Below, piece after piece: positions 19,131-28,012 of a DNA stretch of 64,000 nucleotides (the first letter of the stretch is position 1; the number at the start of each line of letters is the position of its first letter). Where the stretch lies: positions 448,001 through 512,000 of the forward strand of contig BK006947.3 in assembly GCA_000146045.2 (NCBI GenBank). Direction: 5' to 3'. The DNA comes from TPA_inf: Saccharomyces (lineage: Eukaryota). The notes under the pieces were generated by a model that worked only from the letters and a program-made list of their open reading frames with translations, had not been told where the DNA came from and did no database searches. Both the position numbers and the translations under genes were made by a program.

Positions 19131-21623
19131 ATGGCAATCAAGTCATTGGAATCGTTCCTTTTCGAAAGAGGTCTAGTAGGATCCTATGCCATTGAGGCTC
19201 TGAATAATTGTACCCTGGATATAGACGTCAACCATTATGTTTCCAGATTGTTGACCAATAAAAGAGAACAGTATTTGGATGCCATTGGTGGTTTCCCTAC
19301 CAGTTTAAAAATGTATTTGGAAAGCGACTTAAAGATATTCAAGGATTTCAATATTACCCCTATTTTTGTCTTTAATGGTGGTTTGACTTACAACCAATTA
19401 GAGGCATCGGGCCATTTTACTGCAGCATCTGCTTCTGCGTCGATTTCGTCAACCACTACTTCCAGCAGCGGTACCAATGCCACAACAAGATCCAACACGG
19501 AATCCGTTCTTTTGCAGAGAAGTAGAGGCTGGACACAATGGAACAACTTGATTAGTTCGAATCAGAATTCCTATATTGACCAGCCTATTCAACCCCAAGA
19601 GCCATTCAGACATAACACCACAATTGACTCCAAAGCTTACCAAAACGATTTGATCGCTTATTTTATTGAGCATGGGTATATGTACCAAGTGGCTCCTTAC
19701 TCCTCTTGGTTTCAACTAGCATATTTATTGAATAGCGCTTATATTGATGCGATCTACGGCCCAACTGATTGTTTGATGCTAGATTGTGTTGATAGGTTCA
19801 TTTTGGGTATGGAATTTCCAAATAAAGAATTTCGATTCATTGACAGGTCAAGAGTGATGAAGGATTTAGGTTGTACCCATGAAGAGTTTATCGATATTGC
19901 TATGGCTGTAGGTAATGATTTGCAACCAACAACTTTACCACCATTGCAAATTTATCCAGTTCCTCAGCTGTTTGATATTGCTCTAGAAATGGTTTTGAAT
20001 ACAGGTACAAACTTCTATGCCTATCAACTATCTACAACCTTACAAAATGACTCCAAAGAGAATATTCAAAACTACCAAAGAGGTATTTCTGCATTAAGAT
20101 ACATGCCAGTCTTGAAAGATACAGGTAAAGTTGAATTATTTGTTCAAGAGATCGTTGTTTCAGAGGAGGACAGTGAAAAGAATAACAAGGATGGAAAAAA
20201 GAGTAATCTTTCCTCACCATCTTCTGCGTCATCTAGTGCTTCTCCTGCTACCACCGTGACTAAGAACGCTAGTGAAAAGTTAACTTATGAAAAATCCAGC
20301 ACTAAAGAGGTTAGAAAACCAAGAGATATTCCTAATGATGTTCATGATTTTATCGGCCAAATGTTACCTCATGAATACTATTTCTATAGATCCATAGGAC
20401 TGGTTACTGGAAAATTATTTGACGCAATTGTCACAGGAGTTTATCCTGAAGAGCCTCCATTGGGCGGAGGATCTTCTACATCCTACAAGAAACTGGTTTC
20501 CAAGTCCGTTGAAATCTTCAAGAATAAAGAAATCAATTTATTAACTCAACCAATTAACAGATACTATCAGATTAAACAAATTAAACAAGTCAAGTGGTAT
20601 GCGGCAAATGAGCCTACCACTTTGACCAACAGGATGTCACCTTCTATGTTTGAAACTATCAACCACTTAATTGTTAAAACAGAAACGTCTGATGAAAAGG
20701 AATTTTCTATCTCTGAGTTCATTACAACAATAAATGGTTCTAGCAATATGGCGAAAGATTTTATATCTGAAAAAGTCATTTTCCCAAACTCCGTACCAAT
20801 CGAATCCAAATTAAACTCACCATTTAATTTATTGTCGACCAATTTCTTAAGATTACTAGTACTATTGGAGTTCTTCACTTTTGATTTCAAGGAAAAACTG
20901 CTAGAGCCTACGAGATGGGGTGAGGTATTCTTAAAATTAAATGAGCTCAATATTGACAGTAAGTATCACGAATCAGTTATTATCTTTTTGGTATTTTTGA
21001 AATGCGATGTCTTAAAACTTGACGAAGAAGTTCAACCACCGGCTCCCTCAGCCCTATCTCAAGCCACTCTTCGTTCATATCCTGAAGAATCATTGTACGT
21101 CCTATTGATTACGCGTGTATTAACTTTATTTCAAGTGGACCAAAAGCCATCAAATTACCACGGACCAATTGATAAGAAAACTTTGATCTTTAGAGATCAT
21201 CTTTCTTTCATAAAGGAAAATTTAAATGAACTTTTTGAAGCCGTTTTGATCTCATCTTTAACTTCTGGCGAGTTTAATAGATTATCACTTGATAACTTTG
21301 GTTGGGCAAGAAAGATTGTTAGATATTTACCGTTCAAATTAGATTCCCCAAATACTATAATGGCTATGATGTGGGAGTTTTTCTTACAAAAATATCTTCA
21401 CAATGGTAATGCCAAGAATGATGCATTGTCTTTAGTTGCTACTGAATTCAACACTTACAAATCCACACCAAATCTTGATGAACAGTTTGTCGAATCCCAT
21501 AGATTTCTTCTTGAAATTTCAAAAGTCATGCAGGAGCTAAATGCTGCGAAATTAATCGATGAAAACGTGTTTAAATTATTCACTAAAGCAGTTGAGTTTA
21601 CTACAACAGCTCTATCTAGCTGA
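19131..21623 (+). CDS. MKT1: Mkt1 (XPG-N nuclease-like fold, Pbp1-interacting; maintenance of K2 killer toxin)
   Basis: 830 aa. Size and position match YNL085W. Codon 30 is GAT (Asp). Confidence 0.82.
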   Translation: MAIKSLESFLFERGLVGSYAIEALNNCTLDIDVNHYVSRLLTNKREQYLDAIGGFPTSLKMYLESDLKIFKDFNITPIFVFNGGLTYNQLEASGHFTAASASASISSTTTSSSGTNATTRSNTESVLLQRSRGWTQWNNLISSNQNSYIDQPIQPQEPFRHNTTIDSKAYQNDLIAYFIEHGYMYQVAPYSSWFQLAYLLNSAYIDAIYGPTDCLMLDCVDRFILGMEFPNKEFRFIDRSRVMKDLGCTHEEFIDIAMAVGNDLQPTTLPPLQIYPVPQLFDIALEMVLNTGTNFYAYQLSTTLQNDSKENIQNYQRGISALRYMPVLKDTGKVELFVQEIVVSEEDSEKNNKDGKKSNLSSPSSASSSASPATTVTKNASEKLTYEKSSTKEVRKPRDIPNDVHDFIGQMLPHEYYFYRSIGLVTGKLFDAIVTGVYPEEPPLGGGSSTSYKKLVSKSVEIFKNKEINLLTQPINRYYQIKQIKQVKWYAANEPTTLTNRMSPSMFETINHLIVKTETSDEKEFSISEFITTINGSSNMAKDFISEKVIFPNSVPIESKLNSPFNLLSTNFLRLLVLLEFFTFDFKEKLLEPTRWGEVFLKLNELNIDSKYHESVIIFLVFLKCDVLKLDEEVQPPAPSALSQATLRSYPEESLYVLLITRVLTLFQVDQKPSNYHGPIDKKTLIFRDHLSFIKENLNELFEAVLISSLTSGEFNRLSLDNFGWARKIVRYLPFKLDSPNTIMAMMWEFFLQKYLHNGNAKNDALSLVATEFNTYKSTPNLDEQFVESHRFLLEISKVMQELNAAKLIDENVFKLFTKAVEFTTTALSS

Positions 21624-22052: not shown

Positions 22053-23102
22053 TCAATTGATTTCTGCTTGTAATGCTTGCAATTCGTGTCTCTTATTGTT
22101 CAAGTAATTCTCCAATACTTCAACCTGCTGTTCAATGTTATCCAAGTCATCAGTTATCGACCTGATGTTAATCCGCTTAGAAAGTTTTGAGCCTCCTTGA
22201 GTTTTTTCACTCTTTTTGTAGTTCAAAAGGCCTTCTAATTGTTCTCTCATGTTCGCAACTTGATCATCTGTCAGAGAAGCATATTTTTGCTTTATACTGT
22301 CTTCATTTGAAAGCACGTTACTGCCACTGCTATCGGAACTCGAGTTCTGCCCATTGTCACGCAGATTGTCCACTTCGTTAGCTTCTTCTTTTCTCTTTGT
22401 AGGAGGTTGAGAGGACCGTAAATCATAGCTCAGTTGTTTTTTATTGCACACCTCCGCCAGAGAATTTGGTAAACTTGCTGGAATTTCAGCACCCAAATCA
22501 TTTCTTTGTCTTAAACAGTGAATAAAATAAAAAGTAGGATCTCTATCAATTGATGGCAAATTTTGTGGGTTAATTAAACTCCAAACCTTATTTAAATCTG
22601 TCTTACTGATGTTAAAAAATTTTGTGGAAAGTTTTGTTGACAGTTCGTTGAATGTAATAGTACCATCGGTTAGTTTTGCACAGCTATTATAAATTTTTTC
22701 ATATTGATTCAAATCATCTGGAGACATGTACCAATCTACTTTGATTTCCTTCTTTGGAGGCAAGTCTGCGTTTTCTATTTGCTTGCGCTTCTTTCTTTCT
22801 TTGATTAGATTCACCTTACTCCCTGGAATCAACCAATCAGGCAATTCATCTGGAACAGAGCTAATGTTTTTATTAACCATATCAAATATTAATCTCATGC
22901 AAATTACAAATTCCTCAAAGTCTAAATTGTCGTCGTCATCAATATCAGCTAAAAACCAAATCTTGTTTAGAACCGATGAATCTAATTTGGAATTATAAAG
23001 AATTGGTAAAACCTGGTCATGGTTTACCTTATTCTCTATTGGTTTCAAACCCGAGAAGATTTGCCAGTATTTTTTTATTTCAAATTGTTCCAACTTGGGC
23101 AT
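22053..23102 (-). CDS. END3: EH-domain endocytosis protein End3
   Basis: 349 aa. Contains N-terminal EF-hand/EH-like repeats ([13 protein letters not shown]) and a C-terminal coiled coil. It is divergent from SAL1. Confidence 0.82.
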
Positions 23103-23376: not shown

Positions 23377-24861
23377 ATGCTGCTGAAAAATTGCGAGACG
23401 GACAAGCAGCGAGATATACGGTATGCGTGTTTGTTCAAGGAACTTGATGTTAAGGGAAATGGTCAAGTTACTCTAGATAATCTGATAAGTGCTTTTGAGA
23501 AGAACGACCATCCGCTCAAGGGAAATGATGAGGCAATCAAAATGCTGTTTACTGCAATGGATGTTAACAAGGACTCTGTAGTTGATTTAAGCGATTTCAA
23601 GAAGTATGCTTCCAATGCCGAATCTCAAATTTGGAACGGCTTCCAGAGGATAGATTTAGATCATGACGGTAAGATTGGCATTAACGAAATAAATAGGTAT
23701 TTGTCAGACCTCGACAACCAGAGCATATGTAATAATGAACTTAATCATGAACTTTCAAATGAAAAGATGAACAAATTCTCGAGGTTTTTTGAATGGGCGT
23801 TTCCAAAGAGAAAAGCCAACATTGCGCTACGAGGCCAGGCTAGCCACAAAAAGAATACTGATAATGATCGGTCAAAGAAAACCACCGACTCAGATTTATA
23901 CGTTACATATGATCAATGGAGAGACTTTTTGCTGCTGGTACCGAGAAAGCAGGGTTCGAGACTTCATACTGCTTATTCCTATTTTTACCTATTCAACGAA
24001 GATGTCGATCTGTCCTCAGAGGGAGATGTTACTCTCATAAACGATTTCATTCGCGGGTTCGGGTTTTTTATTGCTGGTGGTATTTCAGGTGTTATTTCAA
24101 GGACTTGTACCGCGCCATTTGATAGACTGAAAGTGTTTCTCATCGCAAGAACGGATCTATCCTCGATCTTGTTAAATTCAAAAACAGATCTCCTTGCTAA
24201 AAACCCCAATGCTGACATAAACAAGATATCATCTCCATTAGCAAAGGCTGTCAAAAGCTTATATAGGCAAGGCGGGATAAAGGCTTTTTATGTTGGGAAC
24301 GGTTTAAACGTCATCAAAGTTTTTCCAGAAAGTTCGATAAAGTTTGGTTCTTTCGAGGTCACCAAGAAAATAATGACCAAATTAGAAGGCTGCCGCGACA
24401 CAAAAGATCTTTCAAAGTTCTCTACTTACATTGCTGGTGGTTTAGCTGGTATGGCAGCTCAGTTTTCCGTTTATCCTATAGATACTTTGAAATTCAGGGT
24501 GCAGTGCGCTCCTTTGGACACAAAGTTGAAGGGGAATAATTTGCTCTTTCAGACTGCAAAAGATATGTTTCGAGAGGGGGGGGGTCAGATTATTTTACAG
24601 AGGTGTCACAGTCGGTATAGTGGGCATATTTCCCTATGCTGCATTAGATTTGGGGACTTTTTCTGCCTTAAAAAAATGGTATATTGCCAAACAGGCAAAG
24701 ACCCTGAACCTACCACAAGATCAGGTCACTCTAAGCAACCTGGTTGTACTTCCAATGGGTGCATTCAGTGGAACTGTAGGAGCTTCTGTTGTTTATCCAA
24801 TCAATCTTTTAAGAACAAGACTACAAGCCCAAGGAACATATGCACATCCTTATGTGTATAA
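23377..24861 (+). CDS. SAL1: Ca2+-binding mitochondrial ATP-Mg/Pi carrier Sal1, in its frameshifted 494-aa allele (sal1-1 type). It has N-terminal EF hands and a mitochondrial carrier domain that is truncated by a +1 frameshift.
   Basis: Contains EF-hand loops (DVKGNGQVT, DVNKDSVVD, DLDHDGKIG) and carrier repeats. The frame is lost after a G9 run at about 24576-24584, and the out-of-frame tail runs to a stop at 24861. Confidence 0.8.
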   Translation: MLLKNCETDKQRDIRYACLFKELDVKGNGQVTLDNLISAFEKNDHPLKGNDEAIKMLFTAMDVNKDSVVDLSDFKKYASNAESQIWNGFQRIDLDHDGKIGINEINRYLSDLDNQSICNNELNHELSNEKMNKFSRFFEWAFPKRKANIALRGQASHKKNTDNDRSKKTTDSDLYVTYDQWRDFLLLVPRKQGSRLHTAYSYFYLFNEDVDLSSEGDVTLINDFIRGFGFFIAGGISGVISRTCTAPFDRLKVFLIARTDLSSILLNSKTDLLAKNPNADINKISSPLAKAVKSLYRQGGIKAFYVGNGLNVIKVFPESSIKFGSFEVTKKIMTKLEGCRDTKDLSKFSTYIAGGLAGMAAQFSVYPIDTLKFRVQCAPLDTKLKGNNLLFQTAKDMFREGGGQIILQRCHSRYSGHISLCCIRFGDFFCLKKMVYCQTGKDPEPTTRSGHSKQPGCTSNGCIQWNCRSFCCLSNQSFKNKTTSPRNICTSLCV

Positions 24862-25015
24862 CGGCTTTAAAGATGTTTTGTTAAAGACGCTAGAAAGGGA
24901 AGGTTATCAAGGTCTATTTAAAGGTCTAGTACCAACTTTAGCAAAAGTATGTCCAGCAGTTTCCATCAGCTATTTATGTTACGAAAATCTGAAAAAATTC
25001 ATGAATCTGGAGTAG
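24584..25015 (+). pseudogene. SAL1: Out-of-frame continuation of SAL1 (+1 frame), encoding the conserved last mitochondrial-carrier repeat. A functional ~545-aa Sal1 would read through this segment.
   Basis: Frame 2 from the G-run translates as VRLFYRGVTVGIVGIFPYAALDLGTF...PINLLRTRLQAQG...SISYLCYENLKKFMNLE*, which is a canonical carrier signature. It is contiguous with the SAL1 frame-1 ORF if one G is removed. Confidence 0.75.
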
Positions 25016-25272: not shown

Positions 25273-25390
25273 CTCTTAATAATCATTATGCGATAAAATG
25301 TTTCACCACATCGAAAACTTATTAATTGAGACAGAAAAAAGGTGTAAGCAAAAGGAACAGAGGTATATCCCTGTGAAATATTTATTTAGC

Positions 25391-28012
25391 ATGACACAAA
25401 TTCATCAGATAAACGATATAGATGTTCATCGAATTACATCTGGACAAGTTATCACCGACTTAACAACTGCAGTGAAAGAACTCGTTGATAATAGTATAGA
25501 TGCGAACGCAAACCAGATCGAAATAATCTTTAAAGATTATGGTCTTGAATCTATCGAATGTTCTGATAATGGTGATGGCATAGACCCTTCAAATTATGAG
25601 TTCTTAGCTTTAAAACATTACACATCAAAAATTGCGAAATTTCAAGATGTTGCTAAAGTACAGACGTTAGGGTTTAGAGGGGAGGCCCTATCTTCTTTAT
25701 GTGGCATAGCTAAACTAAGTGTGATAACAACAACTTCACCACCAAAAGCGGATAAGTTGGAGTATGATATGGTCGGTCACATTACTTCAAAGACAACGAC
25801 ATCAAGAAATAAAGGGACGACCGTGTTAGTTTCGCAGTTATTTCATAACTTGCCCGTTAGACAGAAAGAATTTAGCAAAACTTTTAAGCGCCAGTTTACC
25901 AAATGTCTCACAGTTATACAAGGTTATGCAATCATAAATGCTGCCATTAAATTTTCAGTTTGGAATATCACACCAAAGGGTAAAAAAAATCTAATTCTAT
26001 CAACAATGAGAAATTCAAGTATGAGAAAGAATATATCCTCAGTATTCGGTGCAGGTGGTATGCGTGGGCTTGAAGAGGTTGATTTAGTGCTTGATTTAAA
26101 TCCCTTCAAGAATAGAATGCTTGGGAAATACACCGATGATCCTGATTTCTTAGACCTCGATTATAAAATTCGAGTGAAGGGCTATATATCACAGAATTCG
26201 TTTGGTTGTGGTAGAAATAGTAAGGATAGGCAATTCATTTATGTGAATAAAAGGCCAGTGGAATACTCTACGCTTTTAAAATGCTGCAATGAGGTTTACA
26301 AAACGTTCAATAATGTTCAATTTCCGGCTGTATTTCTCAATCTTGAATTACCCATGAGCTTAATTGATGTAAACGTCACTCCAGACAAAAGAGTGATACT
26401 GTTGCACAACGAACGGGCCGTCATTGATATTTTCAAAACAACTCTCAGTGATTATTACAATAGACAAGAATTAGCTCTTCCCAAAAGAATGTGCTCACAA
26501 TCAGAACAACAAGCTCAGAAAAGACTTAAAACGGAAGTCTTTGATGATAGAAGCACAACACACGAATCCGATAATGAAAACTATCATACCGCCAGAAGCG
26601 AAAGTAATCAATCCAATCATGCACATTTTAATAGTACTACTGGCGTAATAGACAAAAGTAATGGTACAGAACTAACTTCTGTGATGGACGGTAATTATAC
26701 TAATGTCACTGATGTCATCGGTTCGGAGTGTGAAGTTTCGGTTGATTCATCAGTTGTATTGGATGAGGGCAACTCAAGTACACCGACTAAGAAGCTGCCA
26801 AGTATCAAAACAGATTCTCAAAACCTAAGTGATCTGAACCTGAATAATTTTTCCAATCCTGAATTTCAAAATATAACTAGTCCAGATAAAGCACGTAGCT
26901 TGGAAAAAGTTGTTGAAGAACCAGTTTATTTTGATATTGATGGTGAAAAGTTCCAAGAAAAAGCGGTTCTATCACAAGCAGATGGTTTAGTTTTTGTAGA
27001 TAATGAATGTCATGAGCATACAAATGACTGCTGTCATCAAGAAAGAAGAGGAAGTACTGACACAGAACAAGATGATGAAGCTGACTCTATATACGCAGAG
27101 ATTGAGCCAGTTGAAATCAATGTGAGAACTCCTCTAAAGAACTCACGTAAATCGATTTCCAAAGATAATTATAGGTCATTGAGTGATGGATTGACGCATC
27201 GCAAATTCGAAGATGAGATATTGGAGTACAATTTAAGCACAAAAAATTTTAAAGAAATAAGTAAAAATGGCAAACAAATGAGTAGCATCATAAGTAAAAG
27301 AAAATCAGAAGCTCAAGAAAACATTATCAAAAATAAGGACGAACTAGAGGATTTCGAACAAGGAGAAAAGTATCTGACGTTAACAGTTTCAAAAAATGAT
27401 TTTAAAAAAATGGAGGTTGTTGGACAATTTAATTTAGGATTTATCATAGTGACCAGAAAAGTTGATAACAAATATGATCTGTTTATTGTCGATCAGCATG
27501 CAAGTGATGAAAAGTATAATTTCGAAACACTGCAGGCCGTGACAGTTTTTAAATCGCAGAAATTGATAATACCTCAGCCGGTAGAATTAAGTGTCATTGA
27601 TGAACTTGTGGTGCTGGACAATTTACCAGTTTTTGAAAAGAATGGATTCAAATTGAAAATTGACGAAGAAGAAGAGTTTGGCTCCAGAGTTAAGCTGTTA
27701 AGCTTACCTACTTCCAAACAAACCCTTTTTGATTTGGGTGATTTTAATGAACTGATACATTTGATCAAAGAAGACGGTGGGTTACGAAGAGACAACATCA
27801 GATGTTCCAAGATTCGTTCTATGTTTGCTATGAGAGCATGTAGAAGTAGTATAATGATAGGTAAACCGCTGAATAAGAAGACTATGACCAGAGTCGTTCA
27901 TAATCTCAGTGAACTTGATAAGCCTTGGAATTGTCCCCATGGACGTCCAACAATGAGACATTTAATGGAATTACGTGATTGGAGCTCATTTTCGAAGGAT
28001 TACGAAATATGA
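25391..28012 (+). CDS. PMS1: MutL homolog Pms1 (mismatch repair). The start is assigned to the second in-frame ATG (873 aa). An upstream in-frame ATG at 25298 would give 904 aa.
   Basis: Contains the GHKL ATPase motifs (ELVDNSIDA, GFRGEALSS) and a C-terminal MutL dimerisation/endonuclease region (DQHASDEKYNFE, CPHGRP). An MCB element sits only ~30 bp upstream of ATG 25298. Confidence 0.82.
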   Translation: MTQIHQINDIDVHRITSGQVITDLTTAVKELVDNSIDANANQIEIIFKDYGLESIECSDNGDGIDPSNYEFLALKHYTSKIAKFQDVAKVQTLGFRGEALSSLCGIAKLSVITTTSPPKADKLEYDMVGHITSKTTTSRNKGTTVLVSQLFHNLPVRQKEFSKTFKRQFTKCLTVIQGYAIINAAIKFSVWNITPKGKKNLILSTMRNSSMRKNISSVFGAGGMRGLEEVDLVLDLNPFKNRMLGKYTDDPDFLDLDYKIRVKGYISQNSFGCGRNSKDRQFIYVNKRPVEYSTLLKCCNEVYKTFNNVQFPAVFLNLELPMSLIDVNVTPDKRVILLHNERAVIDIFKTTLSDYYNRQELALPKRMCSQSEQQAQKRLKTEVFDDRSTTHESDNENYHTARSESNQSNHAHFNSTTGVIDKSNGTELTSVMDGNYTNVTDVIGSECEVSVDSSVVLDEGNSSTPTKKLPSIKTDSQNLSDLNLNNFSNPEFQNITSPDKARSLEKVVEEPVYFDIDGEKFQEKAVLSQADGLVFVDNECHEHTNDCCHQERRGSTDTEQDDEADSIYAEIEPVEINVRTPLKNSRKSISKDNYRSLSDGLTHRKFEDEILEYNLSTKNFKEISKNGKQMSSIISKRKSEAQENIIKNKDELEDFEQGEKYLTLTVSKNDFKKMEVVGQFNLGFIIVTRKVDNKYDLFIVDQHASDEKYNFETLQAVTVFKSQKLIIPQPVELSVIDELVVLDNLPVFEKNGFKLKIDEEEEFGSRVKLLSLPTSKQTLFDLGDFNELIHLIKEDGGLRRDNIRCSKIRSMFAMRACRSSIMIGKPLNKKTMTRVVHNLSELDKPWNCPHGRPTMRHLMELRDWSSFSKDYEI

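Follow-up and report, generated by a model that had tools for sequence, protein, structure and literature searches.

The SAL1 gene (YNL083W) in the analysed part of Saccharomyces cerevisiae chromosome XIV is broken by a +1 frameshift in a run of nine G residues, and we identify it, with a probability of about 0.97, as sal1-1, the known loss-of-function allele of S288C. The window (the whole stretch of DNA analysed, 64,000 nucleotides) carries this gene next to END3, MKT1 and PMS1. The product of intact SAL1 is presumably a Ca2+-regulated mitochondrial ATP-Mg/Pi (ADP/ATP) carrier. Both the break in the G run and the match to sal1-1 had been proposed in an earlier note on this DNA, and both are borne out: the frame is lost at codon 403, the truncated product is the S288C reference protein, and the position of the frameshift is the published one. 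The frameshift is thus already known, and it is real and correctly read. The sequence of the tract, its reading frame, the identity of the product with the reference protein, the reproducibility of the G9 run and the interrupted tract of intact alleles were all observed here, while the loss of function (raised petite frequency, slower growth and aac2-delta lethality) is taken from the literature. No evidence against the identification was found; the points that emerged are minor. The features of the locus are collected in Table 1.

Table 1. Features of the SAL1 locus, in window coordinates.
Feature	Position	Strand	Remarks
sal1-1 ORF (YNL083W, S288C form)	23377..24861	+	494 aa; stop codon 24859-24861; chrXIV 471377-472861
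Ca2+-binding EF-hand region, N-terminal	23428..23712	+	residues about 18-112; intact in sal1-1
SAL1 codon 131	23767 (chrXIV:471767)	+	ATG (Met) in the window; GTG (Val) in BY-type and other sal1-1 assemblies
Mitochondrial-carrier repeat 1	24067..24381	+	residues 231-335, intact; best Mito_carr stretch of the 494-aa product
Carrier repeat 2, first half	24415..24582	+	residues 347-402: helix 3, PIDTLKFR and matrix helix; in frame
G9 homopolymer, the sal1-1 lesion	24576..24584	+	relative to intact GGGTGGGC: one G gained, T>G at 24580, C>G at 24584
Tail of sal1-1 product, out of frame	24583..24858	+	92 aa, 12 Cys, without similarity to the carrier
+1-frame continuation	24584..25015	+	residues 403-545 of intact Sal1p; native stop 25013-25015

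Sequence and identity of the SAL1 allele

Positions 24570-24589 of the window read TCGAGA GGGGGGGGG TCAGA, with a G count of exactly 9; the tract GGGGGGGGG is preceded by ATGTTTCGAGA on the 5' side and followed by TCAGATTATTTTACAG on the 3' side. No other G or C run in the 64-kb window reaches 8 residues, and base composition predicts about 0.04 runs of at least 9. The S288C codons across the tract are GAG GGG GGG GGT CAG A, and the reading first departs from that of the intact ORF of 545 codons at codon 403 (nt 24583). Read from 24584, the +1 frame encodes VRLFYRGVTVGIVGIFPYAALDLGTF...ENLKKFMNLE*; this continuation is not translated in the sal1-1 frame, and it aligns with the C-terminus of all orthologs. 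The carrier is indeed recoverable in the +1 frame, as had been suggested from the sequence: the frame is open to the native stop, and when one G is removed in silico the predicted protein has 545 aa and three Mito_carr stretches.

The 494-aa product is identical to NP_014316.3 / DAA10462.2, annotated in S288C as "Ca(2+)-binding ATP:ADP antiporter SAL1", and its UniRef title is [quoted passage not shown]. Published chrXIV positions equal the window positions plus 448000, with a constant offset, which places the window at chrXIV 448001-512000 of S288C, and a published variant table gives YNL083W at the same chromosomal interval as in Table 1, with variants at 471767, 472577, 472580 and 472584. 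The neighbours of SAL1 are END3 (22053-23102, minus strand), MKT1 (19131-21623) and PMS1 (25391-28012). The window also holds the S288C marker alleles MKT1 Asp30 (GAT, 19218-19220), MKT1 Lys453 (AAG, 20487-20489) and PMS1 Arg818, and all sampled assemblies without sal1-1 carry MKT1 30G together with 453R.

Papers that cite the original studies report sal1-1 in BY4742 as the insertion of 1 bp, which shifts the frame at codon 403 (of 545) and which W303 lacks (citing Chen 2004); the designation "1200insG" is also in use. According to the same kind of source, (i) sal1-1, CAT5-91I and MIP1-661A together raise the loss of mtDNA in BY about 100-fold (citing Dimitrov 2009), (ii) BY strains into which a frameshift-free SAL1 has been swapped grow faster, (iii) the viability of aac2-delta strains requires functional SAL1, (iv) the SAL1 polymorphism is, in the "100 genomes" set, private to S288c and its close relatives, and (v) sal1-1 has been mapped genetically and its repair, now routine there, was confirmed by Sanger sequencing in several laboratories.

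Protein domains and the extent of the loss

The N-terminal part of the product is that of a Ca2+-binding carrier. Pfam models of EF-hands (EF-hand_7, residues 18-78; EF-hand_1/5/6, residues 85-112) all score above their cut-offs, and residues 7-112 match the structure of the SCaMC-1 N-terminal domain (PDB 4zcu/4n5x; E=3e-11). The S288C product thus retains the EF-hands of the Ca2+-dependent ATP-Mg/Pi carrier subfamily. In the JGI data homologs are named "solute carrier family 25 phosphate transporter 23/24/25/41", and the ADP/ATP carrier structures 4c9j and 1okc match Sal1 in PDB at E about 1e-16. Transport of ATP-Mg/Pi or ADP/ATP is credited to Sal1p by Traba et al. 2008, as reported in a paper citing that work.

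The carrier domain is cut in its middle. The repaired 545-aa protein gives three Mito_carr stretches (Pfam, 205 bits), whereas the 494-aa product gives two (99.9 bits), corresponding to repeat 1 and half of repeat 2; the ORF at 24620-25015 alone holds a complete Mito_carr repeat (81 bits). The first half of repeat 2 is identical among Saccharomyces orthologs through G402, and the frame breaks between the matrix helix, which follows the repeat-2 signature PIDTLKFR (residue 367), and transmembrane helix 4. The part recoverable in the +1 frame had been described as the third carrier repeat, and it does include all of repeat 3; it also includes helix 4 of repeat 2, and because the break precedes this helix the loss comprises helices 4-6, more than the third repeat. 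The SAL1 gene is therefore a member of the SLC25 family, and its S288C product is a fragment that lacks the three tandem repeats (about 100 aa each, six helices) of that family.

In the S288C tract the extra G and the T>G and C>G substitutions together make the G9 run, and translation shifts at codon 403. The product retains the EF-hand domain but, of six transmembrane helices, only the first three, and ends in 92 nonsense residues. With only three helices and such a tail it would form no three-repeat carrier barrel and would therefore be non-functional, a conclusion based on the literature and on carrier architecture.

The tract of intact alleles

Intact loci were gathered by exact look-ups of the END3 and intact Sal1 proteins, complemented by a pattern scan of metagenomes. 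All 28 distinct S. cerevisiae sources with intact SAL1, RM11-1a included, carry GGGTGGGC in the context GA GGGTGGGC TCAGA, and the intact Met131 protein of these sources equals the NCBI record under RM11-1a. The JGI metagenome scan, run with a variable-gap pattern, returned two contigs only, both with GGGTGGGC. Variant calls for W303 relative to the reference (472577 GG>G, 472580 G>T and 472584 G>C) imply the same tract. The homologous tracts of S. mikatae (GGGTGGGT) and S. kudriavzevii (GGGCGGAC) are both interrupted as well; the Sal1 orthologs of five other Saccharomyces species are 544-545 aa long, those of S. uvarum, S. eubayanus and S. arboricola being collinear proteins of 545 aa. The earlier note was thus right to suggest a strain-specific lesion, the G9 run going with the 494-aa product and GGGTGGGC with the intact gene, but not in expecting the intact allele to be G8.

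The intact and S288C tracts are separated by an edit distance of 3 (the two substitutions and the gained G listed in Table 1, the extra G being assigned to 24576 by alignment). The lesion is thus a cluster of three changes and not the outcome of slippage in a pre-existing homopolymer; the G9 run itself was made by the mutation and is no ancestral hotspot.

The same difference bears on what a repair of the frame would produce. The intact codons are GAG GGT GGG CTC AGA (E G G L R), whereas deletion of a single G from the S288C tract gives GAG GGG GGG GTC (E G G V) in place of the natural GAG GGT GGG CTC (E G G L), i.e., the replacement L403V. An exact look-up of the 545-aa L403V protein, in both the Met131 and the Val131 background, found it absent among about 15 billion proteins. 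In 28 orthologs residue 403 is a variable hydrophobic one (L, F, M, I or P, never V), and because hydrophobic residues vary at this position L403V is probably tolerated.

Origin of the lesion

Each of the three sal1-1 changes adds a G. Elsewhere in the surrounding 9 kb the window and the intact haplotype closest to it differ at 7 sites; at this local divergence, at least two further substitutions would fall by chance so near the insertion (within 9 bp) with a probability of about 2.4e-5. We infer that the three changes are linked. Chance clustering of this kind is so improbable that one complex event, or misalignment errors that are linked, is favoured; the more likely origins are a single complex event of error-prone synthesis and substitutions that lengthened the run before slippage. 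Error-prone polymerase tracts and dislocation mutagenesis are both established in polymerase-fidelity work, and a complex error of the kind considered here could have come from an error-prone polymerase tract or from misalignment ("dislocation") mutagenesis. A nearby G9 or C9 copy that could have served as template was sought among G or C runs of at least 8 residues, and the 64-kb window holds no other such run.

A stepwise path, implied by the earlier note and concerning the origin only, would lead through two independent substitutions to a functional G8 allele (L403V) and then by slippage to the gain of one G. G8 lies one step from G9 and two from the intact allele, its protein would probably be tolerated given the variability of residue 403, and two G10 variants described below suggest that the length of the tract can change. 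However, no stepwise intermediate (GGGGGGGC, GGGTGGGG or G8) occurs among the 28 intact sources, the V403 protein is missing from the protein collection on either background, and the divergence given above makes it very unlikely that two independent substitutions would fall within 9 bp. We regard this path as less probable and prefer linked changes as the origin of the tract.

Whatever its molecular origin, sal1-1 is a rare variant inherited through the S288C laboratory lineage. The chromosome-level assembly GCA_947370305.1 (L009/L022) carries G9 together with MKT1-30G (ancestral) and MKT1-453K (S288C-like), and over 9 kb its sequence departs from that of the window at only 2 sites. Because this assembly pairs G9 with MKT1-30G, sal1-1 is not strictly tied to MKT1-30D. 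Dimitrov et al. are reported to have found sal1-1 present, and MKT1-30D absent, in the progenitor strain EM93. The haplotype of GCA_947370305.1 fits this genotype and may be a pre-S288C progenitor haplotype.

Tract length and possible recoding

In two Logan assemblies the site of the G9 run is occupied by G10: SRR2186297 (L013, 5955-5964) and SRR2186298 (L014, 2594-2603). The additional G splits SAL1 into ORFs of 414 and 131 aa. The first of these assemblies also has an extra A in the A7 run of PMS1 (window 27397-27403), by which PMS1 is split into 711 and 200 aa. The G10 tract could come from read error or from genuine slippage of the homopolymer in the strain concerned, and these assemblies are the sole hint that tract length can change.

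The G9 tract might act as a reversible switch in laboratory populations, the loss of one G giving G8 (with the probably functional Sal1p-L403V) and the gain of one giving G10; we consider this quite unlikely. A search of the literature for sal1-1 reversion or homopolymer instability found nothing relevant. If such a switch operated, stocks of BY/S288C could be mixed for SAL1 function, and this might explain some sporadic suppressors of aac2-delta lethality or differences in petite frequency from stock to stock. In a weaker version, slippage during transcription, or of the ribosome (+1, on GGG-GGG-GGU), may give a trace of full-length protein.

That such recoding supplies useful amounts of full-length Sal1p, by +1 ribosomal frameshifting on GGG-GGG-GGU with its rare GGG codons or by transcriptional slippage, is very improbable. 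A Gly-tRNA can re-pair perfectly in the +1 frame on a G run, this frame is open to the native stop, and homopolymer runs are able to cause polymerase slippage; but no conservation of the shift was seen in the other strains and species examined, all of which have an uninterrupted ORF and no homopolymer, and the genetics of the allele is that of a loss of function, with growth and mtDNA stability improved by repair and a functional SAL1 needed by aac2-delta strains. Nor is the RNA downstream of the run stably structured: a 121-nt fold compared with shuffled sequences gave z = +0.51, nothing beyond the controls. The codon following the G run is the common GGT and not a pause codon as at programmed frameshift sites. 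A programmed frameshift site was rejected, the shift being unconserved and without a stimulatory element.

Reproducibility of the G9 run

The G9 run was found in 7 further distinct sources, comprising short-read, long-read and metagenome assemblies: Logan DRR531724, SRR12125347, SRR9627126, SRR11430779 and ERR3326250, the ENA metagenome assembly ERZ12289769 and the chromosome-level assembly GCA_947370305.1. The exact S288C MKT1 protein is encoded on 23 contigs, one of which ends short of the tract and was excluded as uninformative; the 494-aa SAL1 is encoded in all of the others (22/22). In the collection searched, 63 blocks list the 494-aa product with Val131.

The suspicion that G9 is a homopolymer sequencing or assembly error hiding an intact gene, which draws on the error-proneness of homopolymers and on the two G10 assemblies, one with its additional A in PMS1, has next to no chance of being correct given this recurrence in independent assemblies and collection blocks, the genetic mapping of the frameshift with its Sanger-verified repair in several laboratories, and the two substitutions that also separate the intact allele and that a miscalled length cannot yield.

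Codon 131 and other variation at the locus

The window differs from other sal1-1 alleles at codon 131. A published table lists A>G at chrXIV:471767 as a BY-specific difference from the reference, and GTG (Val131) is present in every other sal1-1 assembly examined; the 494-aa protein has Met131 on a single contig, that of the reference, and Val131 on 57. Among intact alleles Met131 is the usual state (419 contigs). The discrepancy may stem from a mutation that recurred, from recombination or from a change confined to the reference clone.

The adjacent PMS1 gene varies in annotation and in sequence. Its open frame extends upstream to an ATG at 25298, a start that gives 904 aa in place of the 873 aa counted from 25391, and gene callers report lengths of 873, 877, 879, 904 and 908 aa across assemblies. 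Relative to S288C, PMS1 has an insertion polymorphism at window position 26635, of 12 bp in L003 and L005 and 10 bp in L008; in YJM strains the PMS1 insertion gives an 877-aa Pms1p. In some automated S. cerevisiae annotations (L006, L007 and L010) SAL1 and PMS1 are fused into one model of 1390-1394 aa. Such fused models cause the protein cluster at 90% identity to mix Sal1 with Pms1, and they left the homology search without a representative of S. cerevisiae Sal1.

Significance and comparison with known systems

The significance of the sal1-1 allele is that of a practical caveat and not of a discovery. In both the reference yeast genome and the BY deletion collection, a mitochondrial ATP carrier gene is present as a null allele, with which mtDNA is lost more often, growth is slower and AAC2 becomes essential; studies of mitochondria, ageing or QTLs in the S288C background must reckon with it. 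Repair by deletion of one G would create the non-natural L403V, the natural sequence being GGGTGGGC with Leu403. The cluster of three changes is, in addition, a small example of a complex, run-creating mutation.

Compared with published sal1-1 (Chen 2004, Genetics 167:607; Dimitrov et al. 2009), the gene of the window is alike in identity, strain background, codon-403 shift and length of the product (494 aa), with no difference of substance; the reference sequence in the window has Met131, whereas BY strains have Val131. The sal1-1 literature summarises the lesion as a 1-bp insertion, while variant tables also list the two adjacent substitutions. Intact SAL1 of RM11-1a, other non-S288C strains and W303 (545 aa, "Suppressor of AAC2 lethality") shares 99.5-99.8% nucleotide sequence identity over the ORF and has the same genes, END3, MKT1 and PMS1, at its flanks; it differs in having GGGTGGGC, Leu403, an unbroken frame and three carrier repeats, as judged for W303 from published variant calls only.

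SAL1 shares its layout, an N-terminal EF-hand domain followed by a six-helix SLC25 carrier, with the animal SCaMC/APC proteins (SLC25A23/24/25), which are ATP-Mg/Pi exchangers; in contrast to these, the S288C product is without helices 4-6. Within the S288C lineage, sal1-1 resembles the Ty1 insertion in HAP1, MIP1-661A, CAT5-91I and MKT1-30D, the last located 5.4 kb away in the same window, which are likewise rare, deleterious, private or nearly private to this lineage and of mitochondrial effect; unlike these missense changes and the transposon insertion, sal1-1 is a frameshift null. Finally, in bacterial phase-variable contingency loci the reading frame is likewise set by the length of a G run, and both G9 and G10 forms of SAL1 occur in public assemblies. 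The SAL1 run differs from such loci in being a recent lesion that is absent from natural strains, with no sign of selected on/off switching.
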